51,699 nt of DNA, taken from Eledone cirrhosa (Eukaryota). The notes under the pieces are model-generated. The model was not told the DNA's origin and ran no database searches. It saw only the letters and a program-made list of their open reading frames with translations. Positions 893 through 48,547 of this stretch are shown here, piece after piece. The translations under genes were made by a program, and so were the position numbers. Each line of letters starts with the position of its first letter. Position 1 is the first letter of the stretch. The stretch is taken from positions 1 through 51,699 of the forward strand of contig CAXHJY010001171.1 of the NCBI GenBank assembly GCA_964016885.1, written 5' to 3'.

Positions 893-1432
893 TAATAAAT
901 GTAATCTGAGTTTTTTGAATATTAATAATAACATTCGATTAGTTTGCAATTATGCAAACAAGCCTCAATTTTATAGCCATGTCAGTAGAATGAACACTTC
1001 ATTCTTGCTCTTGTGTTGGCATGTGAACAGAACTGCAGACACTAATGTTTCTGGGTATCACCCCTCATCAGTACAACTCCGGCCATTTATCGCTCGTATA
1101 CAGGAAACTGACTGGCTAGTCTGCTGATATGCAGATTTGACTCATCAGCCAGTCTGCTAATATGGAATTCCGACTGATCAGTCACTGTGTATTTTTGAAA
1201 ATAGCATATATTTTCACTAGCTCTGACAGTTTGGCAGATGAAGGGTGATACCCAGAAACCTTAAAGTCTGCAGTTCTGTTCACATGCCAACACAAGATCA
1301 AGAATGAAGTGTTCATTCTACTGACATGGCTATAAAATTGAGGCTTGTTTGCATAATTGCAAACGAATTGAATGTTATTATTAATATTCGAAAAACTCAG
1401 ATTACATTTATTGTATTCAGCCATGTAGAGTG
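893..1432. mobile_element. Fold-back, HHR-bearing non-coding element (family A; probable Penelope pseudo-LTR derivative)
   Basis: About 180-bp inverted arms (893-1070 vs 1237-1413) flanked by TA tracts; internal ~34-bp subrepeats; second copy at 21351-22577. Confidence 0.75.
1030..1079 (-). ncRNA. Type I hammerhead ribozyme (minimal, short palindromic stem III)
   Basis: Minus strand: gagttgta CTGATGA g gggt gat accc a GAAA cat ta gtg TC tgcagttc; stem I 8 bp including G-U pairs, intact core, GUC site. Confidence 0.8.
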
Positions 1433-12530: not shown

Positions 12531-12779
12531 CTTATATATAAATATATATATATAAGTGTGTGTGTGTGTGTAGTAACTATAAACACAAACCCCAAGATCC
12601 TGAGAGGTTTCCATATGGGTTGTATATAAGCTCTTTGACCAAATATTTACTATAAGCACAGATTAAAGTCTAAGCAAACCAGCTTTCCTTTCACCTAAAC
12701 TGTTCGCTTAAACTTTTAATCTTGGCTAATGATAATAATAATATATATATATAATATTTATACACATTAATATATATAT

Positions 12780-12988
12780 ATGAATGTATGTATAGTATAT
12801 TTGGCAATATACTATATGTTTACTTAAAAACATTTAGAAGACCATACACTATCAGTTTTAAAGTAGTGACTATGTCACTTACTTCTTTTCGGCGAAAGAA
12901 GAGAGAAAAGCTGACAGTTTTTTCACACTTCTAAATGTTTTTAACTAAACATACGGTATATTGCCAAATATACTATATATACATTCAT
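12780..12988. repeat. Fold-back insert (61-bp arms), family B tail
   Basis: Arms 12780-12840 and 12928-12988; homologous to 25120-25250 downstream of the UUGAUAA hammerhead. Confidence 0.8.
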
Positions 12989-13180
12989 GTATTCATTGCT
13001 ATTTCAGAGCACCAGCCCTAATATATATGTATAATTGGTTACAACAGTCATATATACAGGTACTTAAGTTTCGTTGGGTTATACACCTGTACATACTACA
13101 GTATATATATCAAGTATGTTTTGAAACAGTGAGCAAGTTTGAAAATAGAAATAGCAGCGTTTGCAGTATTTTTGACTAAA

Positions 13181-14177
13181 GAAATGTTAGCCTGATAATG
13201 GGGTTTAGAACCCTGTAAGAAATGTTAGGCTGATAGTGGGGTTTAGAACCCTGTAAAAAATGTTAGCCTGATAATGGGGTTTAGAACCCTGTAAGAAATG
13301 TTAGGCTGATAGTGGGGTTTAGAACCCTGTAAAAAATGTTAGCCTGATAATGGGGTTTAGAACCCTGTAAGAAATGTTAGCCTGATAATGGGCTTTAGAA
13401 CTCTGTAGGAAATGTTAGGCTGATAGTGGGGTTTAGAACCCTGTAAGAAATGTTAGGCTGATAATGGGGTTTAGAACCCTGTAAGAAATGTTAGCCTGAT
13501 AATGGGGTTTAGAACCCTGTAAGAAATGTTAGCCTGATAATGGGGTTTAGAACCCTGTAAGAAATGTTAGCCTGATAATGGGGTTTAGAACCCTGTAAGA
13601 AATGTTAGCCTGATAATGGGGTTTAGAACCCTGTAAAAAATGTTAGCCTGATAATGGGGTTTAGAACTCTGTAGGAAATGTTAGGCTGATAGTGGGGTTT
13701 AGAACCCTGTAAGAAATGTTAGGCTGATAATGGGGTTTAGAACCCTGTAAGAAATGTTAGCCTGATAATGGGGTTTAGAACCCTGTAAGAAATGTTAGGC
13801 TGATAATGGGGTTTAGAACCCTGTAAAAAATGTTAGCCTGATAATGGGGTTTAGAACCCTGTAAGAAATGTTAGCCTGATAATGGGGTTTAGAACTCTGT
13901 AGGAAATGTTAGGCTGATAGTGGGGTTTAGAACCCTTTAAGAAATGTTAGGCTGATAGTGGGGTTTAGAACCCTTTAAGAAATGTTAGGCTGATAGTGGG
14001 GTTTAGAACCCTGTAAGAAATGTTAGGCTGATAGTGGGGTTTAGAACCCTGTAAGAAATGTTAGCCTGATAGTGGGGTTTAGAACCCTTTAAGAAATGTT
14101 AGGCTGATAGTGGGGTTTAGAACCCTGTAAGAAATGTTAGCCTGATAGTGGGGTTTAGAACCCTGTAAGAAATGTTA
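13181..14177. repeat. 38-bp minisatellite, about 26 copies
   Basis: Unit gaaatgttag(c/g)ctgata(a/g)tggggtttagaaccctgtaa. Confidence 0.97.
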
Positions 14178-14621
14178 ATCTGAAAGTCCACCCCCTAACG
14201 GGGAATTTATTTTGTTATATTTATGCATAGTTTATTTTATATTTTTTATATCATCATTGTTAAATTAGTCTTGCCATTGTGCACTTTTACTCGACCTTAT
14301 TGTAAACCCCTACTGTCCCTGTCTTTGTATTGTCCCCTACATGTCGGCCCTTGTGACTAATAAATGAAATCGTTATTATTATTATTATTATTTTCCTAAT
14401 CCTGGCAATAACACCTAAACAGAAATATACTATACAATGTTGTAAACTGCTTCTCCCAACAAAAAACAGTTTTTTATATTGTTTTTCTTGGGCTTTATTT
14501 GTTTTCTTTCCTGTTTGCTCATCTGGAGTATATTTTTCCAACTTCAACAGATACAAAACTCTGTATACATTCTTGTATAAGTATCTATATATACATGTGT
14601 GTGTGTATGTGTATATATATA

Positions 14622-14812
14622 TTATTAAGATTAGATAATGTGTCTTGTTACTCTGGAGTTTCTCCTGCTTATCAACTAACAAGATGACCCTGTGGTAAAC
14701 AGGTGAAACCCCAGAGTAACAAGACTCACTATTTAGCTTTAATAAAATGAATATTAAAACTCTACTTTTGTATTGAGTACTCCTTTCTCTCAGTCATCAA
14801 CTACATTCGGAT
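14622..14812 (+). mobile_element. Fold-back insert with truncated HHR (family E)
   Basis: 14683: GATGA c cctgt ggtaa acagg t GAAA ccccagag TA acaag; inverted arm 14625-14674; second copy 32773-32900. Confidence 0.6.
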
Positions 14813-16147: not shown

Positions 16148-16268
16148 ATAGGAAAAGGTTCAGGACCCCAACAGCAGAGCTCAAGCCGTTTCGACGGCTA
16201 TTCTGAGTCCAGAAATAGCTGTCGAAATGGCTTGAGCTTTGCTGTCGGGGTCCTGACTCTTTTCCTAT
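16148..16268. repeat. Short imperfect palindrome (fold-back insert)
   Basis: tcaggacccc...gctattctg agtc cagaaatagc...ggggtcctga; related sequence 43090-43155. Confidence 0.75.
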
Positions 16269-16417: not shown

Positions 16418-16473
16418 CGCTGTATTTGGACTAAAGAAATTATCAGGCTAATTTCTTTAGTCAAAATACAGCG
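16418..16473. repeat. Hairpin related to the flank of the 38-bp satellite
   Basis: cgctgtatttggactaaagaaatta tcaggc taatttctttagtcaaaatacagcg; matches 13162-13199. Confidence 0.7.
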
Positions 16474-16682: not shown

Positions 16683-17294
16683 ATATATATATATTATATA
16701 TGATGTTGTCCAAGGGAAAGGTAATGTCTGATACAGCTTGGTACCAGTGACATCACAACTATATATATACTATATATATTATATATGATGTTGTCCAAGG
16801 GAAAGGTAATGTCTGATACAGCTTGGTACCAGTGACATCACAACTATATATATACTATATATATTATATATGATGTTGTCCAAGAGAAAGGTAATGTCTG
16901 ATACAGCTTGGTACCAGTGACATCACAACTATATATATACTATATATATATATTATATATGAAGTTGTCCAAGGGAAAGGTAATGTCTGATACAGCTTGG
17001 TACCAGTGACATCACAACTATATATATACTATATATATATTATATATGATGTTGTCCAAGAGAAAGGTAATGTCTGATACAGCTTGGTACCAGTGACATC
17101 ACAACTATATATATACTATATATATTATATATGATGTTGTCCAAGGGAAAGGTAATGTCTGATACAGCTTGGTACCAGTGACATCACAACTATATATATA
17201 CTATATATATTATATATGATGTTGTCCAAGGGAAAGGTAATGTCTGATACAGCTTGGTACCAGTGACATCACAACTATATATATACTATATATA

Positions 17295-19250
17295 AGTTTG
17301 TTGTTGAGACACATAATTCTATCACGCAATTTGTGGAAGGAAGGGGTAGCTGAACCTGCCAGTAGAAGAAAGAGGGAGCGGGAGGGGAGGAAACCCAGCC
17401 GTGCGTTGATAGTGCCAACCACAGCAGGATCCTAAGGGCAGGAGGTGAAGAAAGTATACTAGGGAGGGGGAAGAGGTGGAAGTAGAAACAGTAAGTAAAT
17501 CAATATGGAGTAAATATATAGAAGAATAATAAGAATGTTAAAAATATTAAAAAACAATTTCTGGTTACTATTCCCTTACCACCATCATCAAGTCTCTTAC
17601 TGGTACTGCTAAACTATAGAGAAGTTTACTAGGTGTGTTGGAATTGTAGTGAGAGAATTTTATGAGTTAGTAGTAATCAACCGAATCTATCTTACAGTGA
17701 CGGGTCAACAAGTAGGGGGCCAAAATACTAAAGAAACTACTACGAAATAATAATTCAGAGTCCCGAAACTAATACGAGATAATAATTCAGAATCCCGAAA
17801 AAGAATACTAATACTATCTATAAGGGTGCCGCTACGATACAAAAATTCTAATACAAACTACATAGATGCTCGTACGATATATATGAAAAATTTGATATGG
17901 ACAAAAAATTCAGAATCTGGCGTCTATCACATCTGCTATAAAAAGCGGAGTCGGCCAATTCTATCATAGAATAGGGGATGGGGGTGGGGGGTACTGAAGC
18001 TACAAAGGACCGAAGGGCTGCCTCAGGGTGGGCAGGAAAGTGAAAAGGACAACGACAAAGAGGGAGAACTGGGGTGGAAGGACTAGGAAGAAGGAAATAT
18101 AGAGGAAACGATAAAAAGATATGAGAAAATCTTACGTCTACCTTTGCAAGCAGGGGTTACCCATTACAAAGTCGGCAAGAGGGGTGTTACAGCCCTTGTC
18201 TACTCCCCCCCGGTCATTATGGGGTTTGAGGGCAAGGTAAGCCCTATGCAATCTGTGTTTGCATGCAGTAACCAGTTCGTCTTTCTTGTTTAGGAGTTGG
18301 TCCTTCGAAAACAGCATTTGTAAAGTTTCCTCCGAGCATAAATTGCACGGACGGCGTCCTCCCGTGTAAGAGTTGGCTCTGGACAGTAAGCTCCAAGTGA
18401 GATCATAGGTAATATTATTATCTTTGAGGTCCCAGAAGTGGCCCGAAAGTAGTGGCGTGACGCCGGGCCGGGTTTCGGAAATTATGTCTGTGTTGGTATA
18501 GCCGGGTCTTGAAGTCACATGCGGTTAATCCTATATAAGCTTTGTTGGAGGTGTCCGTCCTCACGTTGCACTGGTAGATCACATTACAATCTCTGCATCT
18601 GTTGTCGAGGGGGAAAATGGATCCATCAGGACAGTTGCACCTCCTGGTCGGCTCTCCACTGCTATTAAGGTTATTTCTTCCATAGGGGTTGAGTTTTTTG
18701 TTGTTAGAGGAGGCGATGTTTTGTGCAAAGTTAGGTGTGGTGTTGTAGGAGAGTTTGATGGTATTTTTGTTGATTATGTTGTGGTAGCGGTGTTGTAGTG
18801 GGAAGTGTTTTTCGATGAGCCTAAAGAAGATTTTCCCGATAGGTGTTGTCACCTCGGCGTTGTTACATGATTCAATCCTCCCCACAACGCCGAGGTGACA
18901 ACACCTATCGGGAAAATCTTCTTTAGGCTCATCGAAAAACACTTCCCACTACAACACCGCTACCACAACATAATCAACAAAAATACCATCAAACTCTCCT
19001 ACAACACCACACCTAACTTTGCACAAAACATCGCCTCCTCTAACAACAAAAAACTCAACCCCTATGGAAGAAATAACCTTAATAGCAGTGGAGAGCCGAC
19101 CAGGAGGTGCAACTGTCCTGATGGATCCATTTTCCCCCTCGACAACAGATGCAGAGATTGTAATGTGATCTACCAGTGCAATGTGAGGACGGACACCTCC
19201 AACAAAGCTTATATAGGATTAACAGCATGTGACTTCAAGACCCGGCTATA
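17295..19250 (-). mobile_element. Penelope-like retroelement, 5'-truncated with inverted duplication
   Basis: GIY-YIG coding region on minus strand plus about 840-bp 3' UTR; 367-bp inverted arms 18497-18863 and 18884-19250. Confidence 0.9.
18138..18863 (-). pseudogene. Penelope-like linker plus GIY-YIG endonuclease (probably Naiad-type), one frameshift near 18450
   Basis: NTIKLSY, CNC..PLDNRC, NVIYQC..AYIGLT..FKTRLYQH, then LSGHFWDLK..CNLCSEE..LNKKDELVTACKH. Confidence 0.88.
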
Positions 19251-21698: not shown

Positions 21699-21748
21699 GA
21701 ACTGTACTGGTGAAGGGTGATACCCAGAAACATTAGTGTCTACAGTTC
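21699..21748 (+). ncRNA. Type I hammerhead, core-mutated (A6G)
   Basis: gaactgta CTGGTGA a gggt gat accc a GAAA cattagtg TC tacagttc; perfect 8-bp stem I. Confidence 0.7.
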
Positions 21749-22762: not shown

Positions 22763-22807
22763 TATATATATATATATTGTATAGGCACTAAGCAAGTACA
22801 CTGACTT

Positions 22808-25065
22808 GCAACACAAACTTCCAGAAACCTGCCAACCACCTAATAACCTACAAATCTGGCGAGCACATCAGCCAGATTGACTTCTTACTAGTTAGGCAGC
22901 GGAACAGGCAGATAGTGTCTAATACCAAGCCATACCCTGGGGAAGAATGTACCTCACAGCATAGGTTAGTTGTTAGTGATATCTCAGTAAGCAAGAGATG
23001 GAATGAGACATACAGGAAGGTGTGGAGAAGAAAGGTCTGGAAGCTAAAAGACCTTTCACTAAAATACAAATTTAGGAAAGCCCTTCAAGATGTGTATGAC
23101 GAAAAAGATGATTTAGAGACGTATGACATAGATAATAACTGGAATTTCTTACGTGACAACTTGCTGCAGGCTACTGATGAAACCTGTGGCTGGAGCAGAG
23201 CTCCAACCAGACAGAGAGTGACCTGGTGGTGGAACAGCACAGTAGAGAGGGCCATTAGAGACAAAAGACTAGCATGGGATGCTTGGAAAAAGGGTGGGAG
23301 TAGGGAAGGATATACAGCCGCTAAGAGAGAAGCTAGACGTCAGGTGTACTTAGCATGCAGGGAGGCGGAGAGTAGGAGGTTTGCCAATGTTCTGCGACGG
23401 GGTAATCAGAGGCGTGCAGCGTTCCACATTGCAAGGCAGTGTGTCAATGCAAATCAGGATGTTGTTGGAGATAAATATGTCCGGGATGATGCCGGTGTAC
23501 TTAGTGTCACGAATGATCAGAAAAAGGAGGCCTGGAAATGTCATTATGAGAGACTGATGAATGTGGAGAACGAATGGGAGAGAAAGAAATTACCCTTAGT
23601 AGATCCAACAGAGGGACCGGCTATTGAGATTGATGAATATAGGGTCCAAGAGGCAATTAAGGAAATGAAAAATGGTAAGGCAGTGGGACCGTCGGGGATA
23701 GTTGCTGACATGCTGAAGACAACAGGGGACGTAGGCACTAAACCGGTTGCACGCATCATCAATCAAGCTATATATGGTGGTGTCATACCCAAAGACTGGT
23801 GCAGCAGTATTCTCATAAATTGCTACAAAGGTAAAGGGGATGCTCTTGAGAGGAGCAATTATAGGGGTATAAAACTGATGGATCAGGTTATGAAAGTGGC
23901 AGAAAGGATATTAGCACAACTAATTAGAGAAAGGGTCAAACTAGATGAGATGCAGTTTGGTTTTGTGTCTGGCAAGAGTACAACAGATGCCCTCTTCTTG
24001 GTGAGACAATTACAAGAGAGGTTCTTAGAGAAGAATAAGCCACTATACTTAGCCTTTGTTGACCTAGAGAAGGCCTTTGATAGGGTACCCCGATCTGTCA
24101 TCTGGTGGTCCCTAAGGAAACTATGTTTTGAGGAATGGCTTGTGAGGACAGTGCAAAGTTTGTACAGAGGTAGTCAGTAAAGTCAGGGTAGGAATGGAGT
24201 TTAGTGAGGAATTTCAGATACAAGTAGGAGTACATCAAGGTTCGGTCCTCAGCCCGCTCTTGTTAATTATAGTCCTCCAAACCATAACAGAGGAGTTTAA
24301 GACTGGCTGTCAATGGGAACTTCTCTATGCTGACGATCTGGTTCTTATAGCAGAATCAGTAGAGGAGCTAGAGAATAAATTCTGGCTATGGAAACAGCAG
24401 TTGGAAGCAAGAGGACTGAGAGTGAACCTAGCTAATACAAAAGTGTTGATGAGTAGAAAAGAGGACAAAACTCTGATTCCATCAGGGAAATGGCCATGTT
24501 CGATATGCAGAAAAGGAACTGGCATAAATTCTATAAAATGCACACAATGCAGATCCTGGGTACACAAGAGGTGTAGCGGGATAGCAGGCAAACTAATATG
24601 TATGCAGTAGATGTACAGGGAAATTAGACAGTAGAAGTCGCATTGATAGACACATTTTTCAAATGCAGGAGGGCGCTATAGAAGTGGTGGATAGCTTCCG
24701 GTACCTAGCAGATCAGATTATCATGGGAGGGGGGTGTTTGGAGGCCATAGTATCTAGAATAAGGACGAGTTGGAAGAAGTTTAGGGAGCTGCTTCCTCTG
24801 CTGACGAAGAAGGGTTTCTCCCTGCGTACGAAAGGCCGGTTGTATGATGCCTGTGTGAGGAGCGCGATGTTTCATGGTAGTGAGACACGGGCAGCAACTG
24901 CAGAGGATATGCGACGGCTGGAGAGAAATGAGGCAAGCATGCTCCGTTGGATGTGCAGTGTAAATGTGCGTGAACGACCCAGCATGAATGTGTTGAGAGA
25001 GAAACTGTGTCTGAGAGGGATAGAATGTAGTGTACGGGAGAGGAGACTGAGGTGGTATGGACATA
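22808..25065 (+). pseudogene. RTE LINE ORF: APE C-terminus, reverse transcriptase and Cys/His finger; frameshifted
   Basis: 421-aa ORF with SQHRLVV, NYRGIKL, QFGF, FVDLEKAFDRV; next frames GVHQGSVLSP, LLYADDLVL, CSIC..CTQC..VHKRC, RRLRWYGH; frameshifts near 24180 and 24600-24660. Confidence 0.95.
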
Positions 25066-33149: not shown

Positions 33150-35505
33150 CATATATTTAACAATAATTCCCAATACTATAATGAGGCCTTAGCTAAATCA
33201 GGCCATAAAAAATGGGATTGAATTCCTACATATAAAATCACATAGTTACAACATTATTTCTCACAATATAGCCACAAGGAAAAATAATAAAGGTACTAGC
33301 CACTCTTACTCTAAGACGAAGGGTAATATCAAACTTAACTCGCACCAAAGTAAACACCACAAAAATAATATAAACAGAAATACAAATACCTCAAAAGACA
33401 TTACAAAAAACAAAAATAGAAGAACTAATACATTCTTCAATCCCCCTTTCAATCTAAACGTCTCTACCAACTTGCCTAAGGCTTTCTTCTCAATCCTAGA
33501 AAAAAACTTCCCATCTGGCCACAAATACCATAATCTTATAAATAAAAATACCATTAAAATCTCTTACTCTACCACACCAAACAGCTAGTAGTAATAAAAG
33601 GAAGATTAATAATTATTTCCAACTAATTACAACACAACAGGAGGTAAACTTACAGAACAACATAGTACCTGTAAACCCTAGTAGCAATAGTAATAATGGT
33701 AATAGCACTAATGAAATCAATAACAATAGGAACAACAACCATCATTACCCTAATGCTATCCATAGCAACCAGACTTCTACACAACATAGTAACCAGCAAG
33801 CTAACACCCAGAATAAATGTAACTGTAGATCAAATAGAACTTGCCCCTTAGGTAATAATTGCTTAATCAAAGACATCATTTGCTCTTGCACTGTTAACAC
33901 AAACAACTCTTCTAAAACTTATATTGCCTCTACTTCGAACTGCTTCAAGATGAGATACAACTCGCACCTCCACTCTTTCAAAAAACACCTAGCTACAAAC
34001 ACTTTCTGAAAACTAGGAATAGACCATACACACTTCAATGGGAAGTAGTAGGTAGGGCCACATCGTATAAACCACCGAATAAATTATGTAACCTGTCTTC
34101 TAGAGACCCGTACTATAATCTTTTCGAAACTAGACCTCCTTAATAGAAAGTCAGAGATGTTTTCCTCATGCCAGCACCACTACCGACACTCATTCCATAA
34201 CTTTAAACCTAGCCGCTAGTATATAACAATGTCAGATTTGAATTCCCCACCACCTCTAACACTTCACCTCTAGGAATTTCCTTCCCCCACAGCATCAGAC
34301 TCTTTGATCTGCTCTTTCCTCTACACAACTCCTATTTATCTCAAACCTTATACTCTACAATAACTATTAGAAATAAACATCTAGTCACCACCTTTTAATA
34401 TAACTACTTTAGATTACTTATAATATATAAAGTAATGGATATATAATATGTAGAGACATTAAATGTAATATGTGATAATGAATTATATATACATTTATAA
34501 TTAAATATATAAATTAATAGCATTGTATATAAAGGATTAAATTATTAACATAAGGGATTTAACTAATTGGACATGTAAACAGCTATACATTGTTCCATAA
34601 CTTATATCTTGTCTAGTAATGGATAGATAACAATCTAATGAAACCTTTAATATATTATGAGAGAATAGACTGTATTTAAAATTAAATATAAATATATAAC
34701 ATTATGTAAAAGGGATTCAATTGTGACACTATATAATGTCTATTAGAGCAAAGAATTTAAATAGTTTAATTTAATGAGCTAGTTACATCCCTTACGCATT
34801 AGCTCCCCTTAATTTTGGATCTCATATTCACTTCCGGAAATTAAACCATTGGAAAATCTTGCCGTAGAACAACTCTAATCCATGAATATGAATACAATAA
34901 GACCAATTTACAATCCATTACTATAACCAACTAAAAACATTCAATACAAACATTAACTAAAATATAATTTAACATATGTAATGGATAGGAAATCAATAAC
35001 TTTCATATTCGCAACACATACAAATTTGAACTCTACAGAAACTATCGTCGCATTACATCCTCCATAATACACTAACATATTCGCTTAAAGTGCTTGTATT
35101 TTATGTAATACCTTGCCATACAGTATTTATTTATCTATTTATGCCTAATACCTTTGCTTGTTTCCTTCTCATATATCACTAACGCATGTGCACTCTCTAC
35201 GCGCTTGAATATGTATTGCTAGTGTCCTCAATGCCTCTTTAATTATTAGACTATTCTCTTGTATTATCTGTTGCATGTTTGTACAATTCTCGTAAAATAT
35301 ATGTTGCATCCATTCCACCCTGTAAATACTAAACTGTTGCTCACAACATCAATATATATGTATCTATATGATTGTTCAGTTGAATAGGAGGTTAATTATA
35401 TGTACAAACATTGATAATGCTCCGATGACTCTAAACGAAAGTTTGGTAGAAACGATTGTCAGCTATTAAATGATTTGAACATAACTTTGATAATTGTGTA
35501 TTTTA
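33150..35505 (+). mobile_element. Penelope-like element remnant (linker, GIY-YIG pseudogene, 3' UTR, HHR)
   Basis: FFNPPFNLNV..FPSGHKYHNLINKNTIKISYS, CNCRSNRTCPLGNNCL..TYIASTS.CFKMRYNSH, ATSYKP..LCNL (33420-34220). Confidence 0.85.
35415..35468 (+). ncRNA. Minimal type I hammerhead (U4C core)
   Basis: taatgct CCGATGA ct ctaaac GAAA gtttgg ta GAAAC gatt GTC agctatta; GNRA-capped stem II. Confidence 0.65.
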
Positions 35506-36957: not shown

Positions 36958-37023
36958 TATTTTATCTGATGAGGACGTACTGTTGAAATAGCTCAGTACC
37001 TCTGAAATATGTATAATAAAATA
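36958..37023 (+). ncRNA. Minimal type I hammerhead
   Basis: tattttat CTGATGA gga c gtactg[11 nt]cagtac c tct GAAA tatgta TA ataaaata; 8-bp stem I; ends a non-coding tract from about 36335. Confidence 0.8.
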
Positions 37024-37633: not shown

Positions 37634-37700
37634 ATCTGATGAAAACATGCCAGGGGTTATCATATAACCACTCTGGCATCTTTGAAATATGTATAATAGA
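37634..37700 (+). ncRNA. Hammerhead with long stem II, stem I largely missing (family G)
   Basis: at CTGATGA aaa c atgccagg ggttat cat ataacc a ctctggcat c ttt GAAA tatgta TA at; inside fold-back insert 37523-37870. Confidence 0.65.
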
Positions 37701-38452
37701 ATTATGTAATAAAATGAAGATGTATGAATAAAACCGTCTCTATTATTTATTATAGTAAAACACCATTTGATACCTTACAGAGAAAATCCTAAGGAATACA
37801 AATCGTAGAGTGCTTTATGTCTGTTTACGAAAAAGTTAGCAGATTATATGATCAACTTTCATCAACTGAATTATGTATGCATGTATGTATATATATATGC
37901 ATGCATGCATGTATGTATGTATGTCATACTCCCCGACATTCGTAGCCCCAGTTATTTGTGGAATTTTCCTTAGACCCTAACCAATAATTATTCATGAAAA
38001 CCACCAAATAATTGCGGAATCATAGATATCTTCTGTGATTTTTTATGGCTTTTTTTGTGGCAATATATATTATTTTAACACTAAATTATCAACAACAATA
38101 TACCGTATTTGCTGGCCTATTGGACGCACCTTCACATAAGACTCTTCCTCTTTTTTTTTTATTATATTTTACGTCATATTTTGACATTTATAGGCATTTT
38201 TATGGACCACATCCAATATTGGGGCTTTTTCACTGTTCGAGGGTGTTCTCGGAACATAACTCCTGCGAATACTGGGACATAATAGTATATATATAGTTTG
38301 ATAAGATACCCTTGTAGATTCCATCTAGCTCTGCAATTATACACTCACGCTTAATGAACTTAGAAAAATCACATTATGTTGTAAATAGAAATTTGCAACC
38401 TACAATGGATACTATATATATATATATATATATACACATACACACCAAAAAA

Positions 38453-40680: not shown

Positions 40681-40812
40681 TCTATTTTTGAATAATAATA
40701 CAGTGCTACAAATACAGAGGTCATGGTCATAGTGCATGTGTTGGAGAGAGGGGGGAATAAATCAACACATTTTATCCTTGATTGAAAAATTCAACCAAGG
40801 AATTGATACCAA

Positions 40813-41548
40813 CAGATAGAATCAACAATAGAAAGACCAATAGAAACATTATTTCCTTGGTCTGATCTGATGATCAGCTCCTTTCTACTGCCAGTAGTTG
40901 TGACTGACAGATAGTATCAGTAATGGAAAGACCAATAGAAACATTGTTTCCTTGGTCTGATCTGATGATCAGCTCCTTTCTTCTGTCAGGAGTTGTGACT
41001 GACAGATAGTATCAGTAATGGAAAGACCAATAGAAACATTGTTTCCTTGGTCTGATCTGATGATCAGCTCCTTTCTTCTGTCAGGAGTTGTGACTGACAG
41101 ATAGTATCAGAAATGGAAAGACCAATAGAAACATTGTTTCCTTGGTCTGATCTGATGATCAGCTCCTTTCTTCTGTCAGGAGTTGTGACTGACAGATAGT
41201 ATCAGTAATGGAAAGACCAATAGAAACATTGTTTCCTTGGTCTGATCTGATGATCAGCTCCTTTCTTCTGTCAGGAGTTGTGACTGACAGATAGTATCAG
41301 TAATAGAAAGATCTATAGAAACATTGTTTCTTTGGTCTGATCTGATGATCAGCTCCTTTCTTCTGTCAGGAGTTGTGACTGACAGATAGTATCAACAATA
41401 GAAAGACCAATAGAAACATTGTTTCTTTGGTCTGATCTGATGATCAGCTCCTTTCTTCTGCCAGGAGTTGTGACTGACAGATAGTATCAGTAATAGAAAG
41501 ACCAAGGGAAACATTGTTTCATTGGTCTGATCTGATGATCAGCTCCTT
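40813..41548. repeat. 95-bp minisatellite, about 7.7 copies, SINE-tail derived
   Basis: gaaagaccaa recurs every 95 bp from 40831 to 41496; matches reverse complement of 37312-37403. Confidence 0.95.
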
Positions 41549-42756: not shown

Positions 42757-43074
42757 TATATTTAGAAAGAGGAAAATATGAAGTTGTAGATGTTAGGGTC
42801 CTTTATTAATTGAGCTGTTATACATATTTCCATGACGATAGAAAGCAAAGTTGAGTAAAAGATAAGATTTCTGAGGATATTATCGGTGGAAGGAAGCAGT
42901 CAACCAAAGCAAAAGCATAAGTTTTTTTAGTCCGCTTCCTTCCACCCATAATATCCTCAGAAATCTTACCTTTTACTCAACTTTGCTTTCTATCGTCATG
43001 GAAATATGTATAACGGCTCAATTAATAAAGGACCCTAACATCTACAACTTCATATTTTCCTCTTTCTAAATATA
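42757..43074. repeat. Fold-back, 141-bp arms, 36-nt spacer (family F)
   Basis: Arms 42757-42897 and 42934-43074; each carries the HHR 3' half GAAA tatgta TA ac(a/g)gc. Confidence 0.9.
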
Positions 43075-44923: not shown

Positions 44924-45567
44924 GTATATATGTATGTGTGTGTGTGTGCGCATACATGTATATATATATATATTTATTTAATTAGAGAAAGTTGGTTGAT
45001 TTAAAATCTGCCGACTTTTCTATAACAGATGTCAAGCACTCAACAGTTTATGTTTATCTGGAGTTTTAGTATAATAATAAACAAGTAAGACGGTTACATT
45101 AATCGATCCCTATTTATTTTATTATGTTTATTCTTTTTTTTATAATATAGGGATGGCCTAACATAACTGTCTTAGTTGTTTATTATTATATATATATATA
45201 TAGTTAGTGGTAAGAAACTCTCAGGGGAGCTGGATAGCAGAAGTTCTTCAGAGAAGAAACCCCTTAACTTCTTACACTCTAAGGGGACCAGGCTGCACTC
45301 CTGGGTCCCATTCTGCTGACATTTAGCCATCCAGATATCGGAGACTTGTATATACAGTGTATAGAGATGTTATTGACATGATCTAGCTGGAACTCCTCTC
45401 TGTTGCTTCTCCTTTCAAACTTATATTTAACCCTTTACCATTTAAACCAGCCGTATCTAGCCAGAATTCTCTCACCTCTTTCTGCTCAAATCAGCCATAA
45501 CTGGCCACTCATACTGATGTTAATGTATTGTTCTCAAAATAAATAATATCAAAATCATGTAGATTTG

Positions 45568-45920
45568 ATATTATGTGAGGTAAGGTGTTTACTGTGAAAA
45601 TACAATAGTATATATAGAGTAATGTAAATGTTATGTAAGATATTGTGTGAGGTAAAGCCTTTACTGTGAAAATACAATAGTATATATAGAGTAATGTAAA
45701 TGTTATGCGAGATATTATGTGAGGTAAAGTCTTTACTGTGAAAATACAATAGTATATATAGAGTATGTAAATGTTATGTGAGGTATTATGTGAGGTAAAG
45801 ACTTTACTGTGAAAATACAATAGTATATATAGAGTATGTAAATGTTATGCGAGTTATTATGTGAGGTAAAGCCTTTACTGTAAAAATACAATAGTATATA
45901 TAGTAAATATAATGTAAATG
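45568..45920. repeat. About 72-bp minisatellite, about 5 copies
   Basis: attatgtgaggtaaag..tttactgtgaaaatacaatagtatatatagag repeated. Confidence 0.92.
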
Positions 45921-46160: not shown

Positions 46161-46359
46161 GTGTGTATATATGTATAAATAAATATACACGGGTGTGTAT
46201 GATTGTGTATAGAAGATTATATTAATAAAAGGAATTCCAACTTTGCCTGATTTACTCGTTTTATTTACAATCCTTTAAAAAGTACTTTAGGTTCATGTTC
46301 AGTGGTGACAGTCAAGTTTGCAATTTTATATATATATATGTGTAACATAAGATAATTAT

Positions 46360-46417
46360 TTCATTTACCAGTGGTTTCTTGAAAGCAGATATACCTGTTT
46401 TCAATCGTCAGAATGAA
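46360..46417 (-). ncRNA. Type I hammerhead ribozyme (left arm of palindrome)
   Basis: Minus strand: ttcatt CTGACGA ttgaaaacag gtatat ctgctttcaa GAAA cca c tgg TA aatgaa. Confidence 0.85.
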
Positions 46418-46620
46418 TAAAACATGGTGTTTTTATTAAATATGGATTTGAAAACAAAATATAAGAAATATGAAAGTGAGGCTGAGGAAACAACGGGCGA
46501 AGAAGAAGAAAAAGAATCATATTCTTTTTCTTCTTCTTCGCCCGTTGTTTCCTCAGCCTCACTTTCATATTTCTTATATTTTGTTTTCAAATCCATATTT
46601 AATAAAAACACCATGTTTTA

Positions 46621-46678
46621 TTCATTCTGACGACTGAAAACAGGTATATCTGCTTTCAAGAAACCACTGGTAAATGAA
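46621..46678 (+). ncRNA. Type I hammerhead ribozyme (right arm of palindrome)
   Basis: ttcatt CTGACGA ctgaaaacag gtatat ctgctttcaa GAAA cca c tgg TA aatgaa. Confidence 0.85.
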
Positions 46679-46789
46679 ATAATTATCTTATGTTGTTTAT
46701 TACATAACTATTAAGCTCTGTAGCCTACATAGAGCACTCTTTTTTCCTGTACCTTTCTGACGGAATTACTTCACCTACATATATGTGTG

Positions 46790-46841
<52 letters not shown>

Positions 46842-46927
46842 TTATATATGTATATATATATGTATCCGATGTAGTTAAAAAAGCTACTCAATATGTTGGT
46901 AGAATATAGGCATCTTCATTATATATC

Positions 46928-46994
46928 AAAATGACTTCTACATAGTGATAATTTCATATGAATGAAACAGTTCTAGTCCTGTAGAAGTCATTTC
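46928..46994 (+). ncRNA. Family C fold-back with decayed or truncated HHR
   Basis: aaatgacttctaca tag TGATAA t ttc atat gaa t GAAA cagttctag TC ctgtagaagtcattt. Confidence 0.45.
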
Positions 46995-48283
46995 TATATA
47001 TAATAAATATCATCATCATCATCATCATATATATATATATATATTAGCCATACAATATGTATAGTAGTTATATAATTCCTAAATAACATATATATAATAA
47101 ATATATGGTATGATGTTGTAACTGTTGATGGAGCTATAGGGGGACTGTAGTGACAGCGTTTCTAGGGCATGTGAAAACCTGGTGGAGCGCATCCCTCTCC
47201 AGGATATATATATATATAATATAATATACGCACGCACATACTTGTGAACACAACACAGACATACATACACACTAATACGTATGTGGACCTGCTCACACAC
47301 TCATTAGTATGTATGGGTGCAAGCAATCAAGCAAAACCTTGAGGAAACGCCTGCACGAAGCATGCACACACTCATATAACAGCATACACATGCAAGCACA
47401 CCCACACACGTGTGTGTGTGTAAAAGTATATAAATATATATCCAATCTGATAAAATTAGTTTTTTTTCTGATCAATGCTGGAGTCGGGTCTGTAGTACAA
47501 ATATGGACCTTGAGCCATCCATCTGTGAAACATATGAAACTGTCACAATATTAATATTTATGTACACTCTGCTTTAGTATTGAGTACTAATATTGGTACC
47601 ACCTCTAGTAACCCACAAAACTACTGAATCATCTAAAGATTTTTCTTCTTTCCGAAGTTGAGTACCATGGAGTGGTTTTCTTACACCTCAATTAAAGGAC
47701 ATGCCCATACCGGAAGACACCTACTTAAAGATGATCATACAGAAAATGGACAGATGAGGTGGCCTACAAACCACTTCAAGTGGGGAGGGGGCACAACAGC
47801 AGCAGTACTACATCTAACTTGAAACGTATGCAGATGAGGAAGAACTTCAGTTACCAAAAATAGAGCTGACTGAGGAAGCAAGAGTGATAACAGACTACAG
47901 AAAATAGCATCTAACAGTCACTGATGTAGGCTGCTACCACTGTTGTTATGACTACCTCATACTACTACACCACACATATATAAATACAAATCAGTATGTT
48001 GAAAAAAATCCTAGTGTTATAAATTGCCACTTTTCCCTTCGTATTCTCTACACCTAGATGTTGGTGATGTTGTCGCTGTAGCAAATGAACGACCAATCTA
48101 GTACACCTGACCTTGAACAATCCCTTTAACTGCACACACAAACACACACACACGGGTGCCAACAAGCAAAACCTTGACCACGCGCCAATGCTCACATTCA
48201 CACTCATATAACATCAAACCTGTACAAGCACACCCACGTTAAATGCTGTATGTGTGTGTATATATATATAATAAACAAAAAGA

Positions 48284-48352
48284 GACGGCTTTAAGTGTAC
48301 ATCGTCTGTTTATTGTATAATAAACAGAGGATGTACATTTAAAACCATCTCT
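48284..48352. repeat. Hairpin at the start of a family G-like tail
   Basis: gagacgg...gtttat tgtata ataaac...ccatctc; downstream sequence resembles 37690-37830. Confidence 0.65.
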
Positions 48353-48547
48353 CTTCTTTACAATATTAACACGTCTCATACCTTATTGATAATACTTTAA
48401 GGAATACAAGTCATTGCATGCTTTATGCCTGTTAATGACCAAAGTCAGTGGACCGATCAACCAACGCTGGAAGCAGATTTAACTTAAATCTGCTCTCCAA
48501 ACAAACACAGTCTATCCAATTGCTTTTTATGTCTCTAATAGGGTTAC

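Follow-up and report, generated by a model that had tools for sequence, protein, structure and literature searches.

The insertions closest in design to the locus described here are those of Penelope-like elements (PLEs). Craig et al. (PMC8557442) describe an inverted 5'-truncated copy lying directly at the 5' end, a tail of 30–40 nt at one end and hammerheads in the pLTRs, as well as a microsatellite bias in the Naiad clade. Arkhipova et al. (PMC3846280) describe an adjacent inverted pLTR, target-site duplications (TSDs) of 8–10 bp and head-to-head palindromic junctions, for which self-priming was proposed. Dual minimal hammerheads on opposite strands, 100–700 bp apart, were reported in 2014 by Cervera and de la Pena (PMC4209133); a tested monomer of the minimal PLE hammerhead gave no cleavage, and a dimer model is given. 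In vitro, an Anolis PLE primes internally at two tail-bounding sites, and both target strands are cut and extended (PMC11167929). In Drosophila, siRNAs match the inverted regions of rearranged Penelope copies (PMC3681739). The non-LTR retrozymes of animals are direct tandem repeats of 150–450 nt (PMC7229834; bioRxiv 10.64898/2026.07.22.740005). Mechanism papers newer than these were not found in the openly readable literature.

The sequence analysed, called the window below, is a 51,699-nt stretch of DNA from Eledone cirrhosa (assembly GCA_964016885.1, contig CAXHJY010001171.1) and resembles a microsatellite-rich animal genome. It also holds a non-LTR retrotransposon frame, open for 462 codons and matching RVT_1 (22792–24180, plus strand), and minisatellite arrays at 45550–45912 (5 copies of a 71–72-nt unit), 13179–14187 and 40798–41548.

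A first-pass annotation had claimed a near-perfect 351-bp palindrome with a 3-nt spacer and opposed hammerhead motifs, and this was reproduced on recomputation: two arms of 174 nt each, 99.4% identical, differ at a single position. The mismatch lies at 46634, which is C, whereas the mirror of 46404 reads T; as claimed, it affects the pair that opens stem II, which is U-A in the left copy and C·A in the right. The annotated extent, 46344–46694, is exact for the arms and leaves out an 84-nt tail and the flanking duplication. The whole unit, 46344–46778, thus comprises an inverted copy, a direct copy and the tail on a single side, with the orientation of the arms set by hammerhead polarity. The unit has a low GC content (30%) and contains no ORF, and a self-search of the window found no second direct copy or tandem monomers of it. 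The features of the locus are as follows.

46334–46343, plus strand: possible 10-bp target-site duplication (left copy), ATATATGTGT, closing a TA/TG run
46344–46517, minus strand: left arm, read as an inverted, tail-less copy of the element end
46360–46417, minus strand: type I hammerhead motif, left copy, with U-A at the base of stem II and a predicted cut after 46366
46518–46520, no strand: 3-nt spacer, CAT, at the head-to-head junction
46521–46694, plus strand: right arm, read as a direct copy of the 5'-truncated, pLTR-like element end
46621–46678, plus strand: type I hammerhead motif, right copy, with C·A at the base of stem II and a predicted cut after 46672
46695–46778, plus strand: one-sided 84-nt tail, multi-copy in the species by read depth and read ends, with GAGCACT at 46732
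46779–46788, plus strand: possible target-site duplication (right copy), leading into a TA microsatellite

The locus is very probably one dead-on-arrival Penelope-like insertion, in which the heavily 5'-truncated 3' end of an element carries an inverted copy head-to-head at its 5' side. With the EN+ PLE units (Penelope/Poseidon, Neptune, Nematis; PMC3846280, PMC8557442) it shares 5' truncation, the head-to-head inverted copy, the one-sided tail, a possible duplication within the 8–10-bp range, an AT-rich or microsatellite target and a terminal-repeat hammerhead. It differs from the units as described in those papers in the length of its tail (84 nt versus 30–40 nt) and in having no ORF remnant in this copy. 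The longer tail may be a family-level difference, or the inverted copy may have stopped internally. Assignment of the family to the PLEs draws on architecture and motif type and is the most likely one; no PLE ORF linked to the hammerhead family was found in the window or in scans of metagenome and viral contigs.

The tail sequence is absent beyond the left arm on self-comparison. The annotation had hinted at 46695–46780 as a family tail, and reads bear this out: contigs and RAD-seq show a multi-copy family extending past the right arm to about 46767–46780, with high read depth to about 46770 and 436 read ends at 46767. Both flanks of the unit are TA/TG microsatellite. The repeat of ATATATGTGT across the unit is a possible target-site duplication, for which support is modest because this low-complexity 10-mer is also present at 11 of the 290 TA-run starts in the window. 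Two very high-copy repeat fragments (46190–46310 and 46946–47006) flank the unit; these flanking repeats show many opposite-strand read joints at 46946–46963, and hammerhead-core letters occur in loose ends.

Evidence on the family was drawn from three short-read contig runs of one sample, which hold 43–55% of words, and from one RAD-seq run, in which depth reflects few start sites. Raw-read depth climbs from the palindrome centre toward the 3' end, from about 35 to 1800, as expected with 5' truncation. A fold-back joint at exact mirror positions, 46421>46617, was present in all three contig runs (depth 9–16), and a second, 46454>46584, in two of the three. Further joints among those listed fall inside stem II (for example 46377>46653, 46379>46655 and 46391>46659), each in one run. 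Joints in short-read contigs carry less weight than long reads would. Since the family joints sit at other mirror positions, some of them within stem II, fold-back is a habit of these elements, its centre is variable, and it does not require two whole hammerheads. A pattern scan for family copies gave 0 loci in metagenome contigs and 0 in viral contigs.

Both arms carry G46644/C46394, where more than 95% of contig depth at 46644 has another base, and T46577/A46461, where most contig depth differs. Because these departures from the family majority are shared, the arms derive from one template or were homogenised, and arm identity is no clean clock. A recent origin of the palindrome, which the annotation had read from the near identity of the arms, is therefore plausible and not firm, one template or gene conversion being able to account for the shared departures. 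Support for G in the family at base 46639 was mixed across runs. A related subfamily, read by eye from a 709-read loose end at 46387, retains stem I and the core and differs at N7 and in the loop; its stem II is a perfect 11 bp, in which a single compensatory change replaces G-C by A-U. This rebuilt stem favours the view that the motif may be under structural selection.

The inverted self-search of the window returned 11 close inverted pairs, of which a pure TA microsatellite pair (724–1572) was dropped. Exactly one end lies in a TA/TG run in 9 of the remaining 10 fold-backs. Besides the hammerhead palindrome and a large PLE fold-back treated below, there are eight units of differing ages, most with one end in microsatellite.

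42757–43074: fold-back unit
16148–16268: fold-back unit
12776–12992: fold-back unit
14613–14754: fold-back unit
16418–16473: fold-back unit
45070–45190: fold-back unit
46912–47010: fold-back unit
48266–48366: fold-back unit

These data bear on whether the palindrome was made during assembly or library preparation. Arms that are nearly identical, and a 46517/46521 junction that is spanned by no contig or read among the matches listed, would suit a fold-back artefact; such an origin is nevertheless very improbable. The left arm ends at 46344 and gives way to different DNA, only one side has a tail, the 10-mer is repeated across the unit, and two to three short-read runs show family fold-back joints at matching positions. 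The arms of the other fold-backs in the window diverge by about 0.5% to over 20%, a spread that marks a series of ages and not an artefact of reads.

The largest fold-back served as an internal control, being part of a separate PLE insertion.

17290–19250, minus strand: separate 5'-truncated PLE insertion with a linker and endonuclease coding remnant

Its palindrome, 18497–19250, has arms of 367 nt (18497–18863 and 18884–19250) with 2 mismatches and a 20-nt spacer, and duplicates PLE coding DNA, with 37% identity (E 2e-29) to P0001, which we take, from its RT and linker/endonuclease motifs, to be an RT-endonuclease protein. Coding DNA of the kind expected in EN+ PLE families, for a telomerase-like RT with a GIY-YIG endonuclease, lies at 18249–19245 in this different PLE. 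The strict hammerhead scan found no hammerhead in these arms. On the minus strand the element extends through its non-coding end as far as a TA run. It interrupts a minisatellite array with a unit of about 85 nt, is frameshifted near 18445 and carries a decayed hammerhead-like motif near 17590. Its Cys-containing linker is presumably of the Neptune/Nematis type described in PMC8557442; no Pfam matches were obtained for the remnant or for P0001. The 20 nt of the spacer are native coding sequence (FNPP) and run in the orientation of the short arm. By our reasoning, a simple snap-back of the long first strand would leave the spacer in the orientation of the long copy; twin priming on one RNA therefore suits this palindrome better than snap-back. 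A second, older PLE linker and endonuclease remnant lies at 33418–34095 on the plus strand (tblastn E 5e-13).

Because fold-backs without hammerheads occur in the window and family copies fold back at other centres, the hammerhead palindrome is most likely a generic product of PLE insertion. The same comparison bears on a different origin, in which a piece of a non-LTR retrozyme, or of some other non-autonomous hammerhead repeat, inserted first and was then inverted through fold-back repair of the DNA at the microsatellite. Like animal retrozymes (PMC7229834), the unit is non-coding and AT-rich and has a type I hammerhead, and retrozymes have themselves been proposed to derive from PLE pLTRs (bioRxiv 10.64898/2026.07.22.740005). 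It is, unlike the retrozymes of the former paper, a single inverted pair rather than a series of direct tandem repeats, and no tandem monomers are present at the locus. One-sided tails and head-to-head polarity recur, moreover, across unrelated repeats, the coding PLE included, which points to the integration mechanism. Inversion of a retrozyme-like repeat after insertion is accordingly improbable.

For the PLE insertion, we infer the following series of events. The element endonuclease would nick the AT-rich microsatellite, and reverse transcription would be primed internally at the tail end (about 46778) and halt after about 258 nt. The second strand would copy 174 nt of that template in inverted orientation and be connected to the target at 46344. 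It could have arisen through fold-back self-priming or through separate priming from the other strand of the target; the palindrome's 3-nt spacer fits self-priming and twin priming alike. Repair would then leave the 10-bp duplication, and one later substitution would account for 46634. On this scheme the hammerhead would be part of the terminal repeat of the element, doubled only because the truncation point fell upstream of it.

A short motif, GAGYRCY, is found 15–39 nt past the arm end in 6 of the 10 fold-backs, always on the tail side, compared with 3.6% for random placements; the motif was picked post hoc, and two pairs among the six loci belong to the same families. The GAGYRCY sites in repeat tails and the further sites are as follows.

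46732, 42718, 16294, 13007, 14775 and 45041: GAGYRCY sites in repeat tails
37808, 37151, 32982, 32812 and 26601: further GAGYRCY sites

At 46732 the motif sits in the 3' strand of a predicted 7-bp hairpin in the tail. Tails from several distinct repeat families have it, often with a TA run 20–60 nt further on; it also follows the hammerhead at 37636 and, at a number of other repeat ends, comes just ahead of a TA run. The window has 29 matches on both strands, other repeats included. A MAFFT alignment of the six tails gave 46% column identity, with the motif out of register in some rows. A published description of a GAGYRCY tail motif was not found in the literature searched. One could propose that GAGYRCY is a cis signal common to unrelated PLE families, placing the protein and fixing two internal priming sites, with the inverted arm made by twin priming on one RNA and not by cDNA snap-back. 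We hold this proposal as tentative and rather doubtful; its twin-priming part comes from the neighbouring palindrome, where the native coding spacer is oriented with the short arm.

The hammerheads had been described as intact, a term that holds as a statement about their sequence: the core called for in PLE-type motifs, CUGANGA, GAAA and NUH with a helix I of 4–6 bp, is complete in both arms. In the right copy, a 6-bp stem I (46621–46626 paired with 46673–46678) is followed by CUGACGA at 46627–46633, a stem II of 11 positions (46634–46659), GAAA, a 3-bp stem III with a 3-nt loop, and GUA. Stem II pairs at 10 of 11 positions in the left copy and at 9 of 11 in the right. Across the window 5 sites passed the strict scan; 200 block-wise Markov shuffles averaged 0.015 sites and never had more than 1. 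Other type I motifs, in unrelated sequence, lie at 1038–1071 (minus strand), 36966–37015 (plus) and 37636–37703 (plus), with decayed motifs near 21700 and 32125; palindromic helix III loops are seen in several of the other type I motifs of the window.

The motifs resemble PLE pLTR hammerheads, including the opposite-strand pairs of Schistosoma mansoni (PMC4209133), in their type I topology, long helix II (at least 7–8 bp), short self-complementary helix III and placement on opposite strands, here about 216 nt apart. They depart from the minimal PLE hammerheads as presented in that paper in their longer helix II (11 positions), 3-bp helix III and lack of the G10.1-C11.1 pair with an unpaired base after A9. 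The unpaired base and conserved pair of the minimal consensus are absent from both motifs. Stem II starts with U-A (left) or C·A (right), followed by U-A and then G-C, and because of this the motif is, by sequence, a variant rather than a minimal PLE hammerhead.

As an isolated 67-nt arm the motif takes the hammerhead shape, one G·U pair off the minimum-energy structure (fold energies of −7.7 for the right copy and −8.4 for the left); with longer flanks the right copy folds otherwise. Neither 81-nt fold was more stable than its shuffles (z = 0.01 and −0.50). The Rfam hammerhead families gave 0 matches at the gathering score and none among 68 rows at E values up to 10. Rfam matches to miRNA precursors, all below the gathering score, were explained by the long hairpin alone and were set aside. 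The helix III segment, 46663–46671, is self-complementary, with a homodimer energy of −8.2 kcal/mol (8 of 9 pairs) compared with +0.4 for the hairpin. The hammerhead is predicted from this modelling to act as a same-polarity dimer via helix III, which agrees with the dimer model for PLE hammerheads (PMC4209133), and the opposed copies are unable to provide such a dimer in cis.

The motif positions confirm the claim that an antisense copy precedes the sense copy on either strand. The annotation had gone further and seen in this a built-in mutually exclusive fold. With both cores complete and antisense ahead of sense on both strands, one could imagine a ribozyme switch between sense and antisense copies that is under selection, or a palindromic mini-element that propagates itself. 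The computed energies contradict a switch: the full hairpin between the arms reaches −283 (plus strand) or −287 (minus strand) kcal/mol and the hammerhead about −8, a gap of ∼275 kcal/mol with no second state. Within the full palindrome, hammerhead pair probabilities are 1e-18 or lower, and the hairpin already stands at −180 kcal/mol when stem I emerges, ahead of transcription of the catalytic core. As modelled, the arm-to-arm hairpin would be a one-way off state with no alternative fold. In addition, the centre varies among family copies and some joints cut stem II, the right copy has lost one stem II pair, and palindromes of the same design without hammerheads occur in the same window. A selected switch or mini-element is thus scarcely credible, and, since family copies fold back at other centres and hammerhead-free fold-backs share the window, the pairing of two complete hammerheads in the palindrome is incidental.

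For the truncated PLE insertion, a read-through transcript is predicted to make a 174-bp hairpin, which would prevent cleavage and would probably be acted on by small-RNA silencing. In this the locus is like the rearranged Drosophila Penelope copies (PMC3681739), as a long element-derived inverted repeat predicted to give double-stranded RNA if transcribed. Double-stranded RNA would be a likelier consequence of read-through than switching.

As it stands, the locus is one more copy of a described insertion pattern and matters little. It shows that hammerheads paired in opposite orientation in animal genomes can be explained without invoking regulation. Long palindromes with short spacers plausibly form cruciforms or become fragile, and fold-backs such as this one may give rise to hairpin small RNAs or act as fragile sites. 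The shared tail motif and the orientation of the spacer bear on how PLEs make inverted ends and tails. If a shared GAGYRCY signal and twin priming were true, this genome would be a natural library for how the inverted ends of PLEs form.
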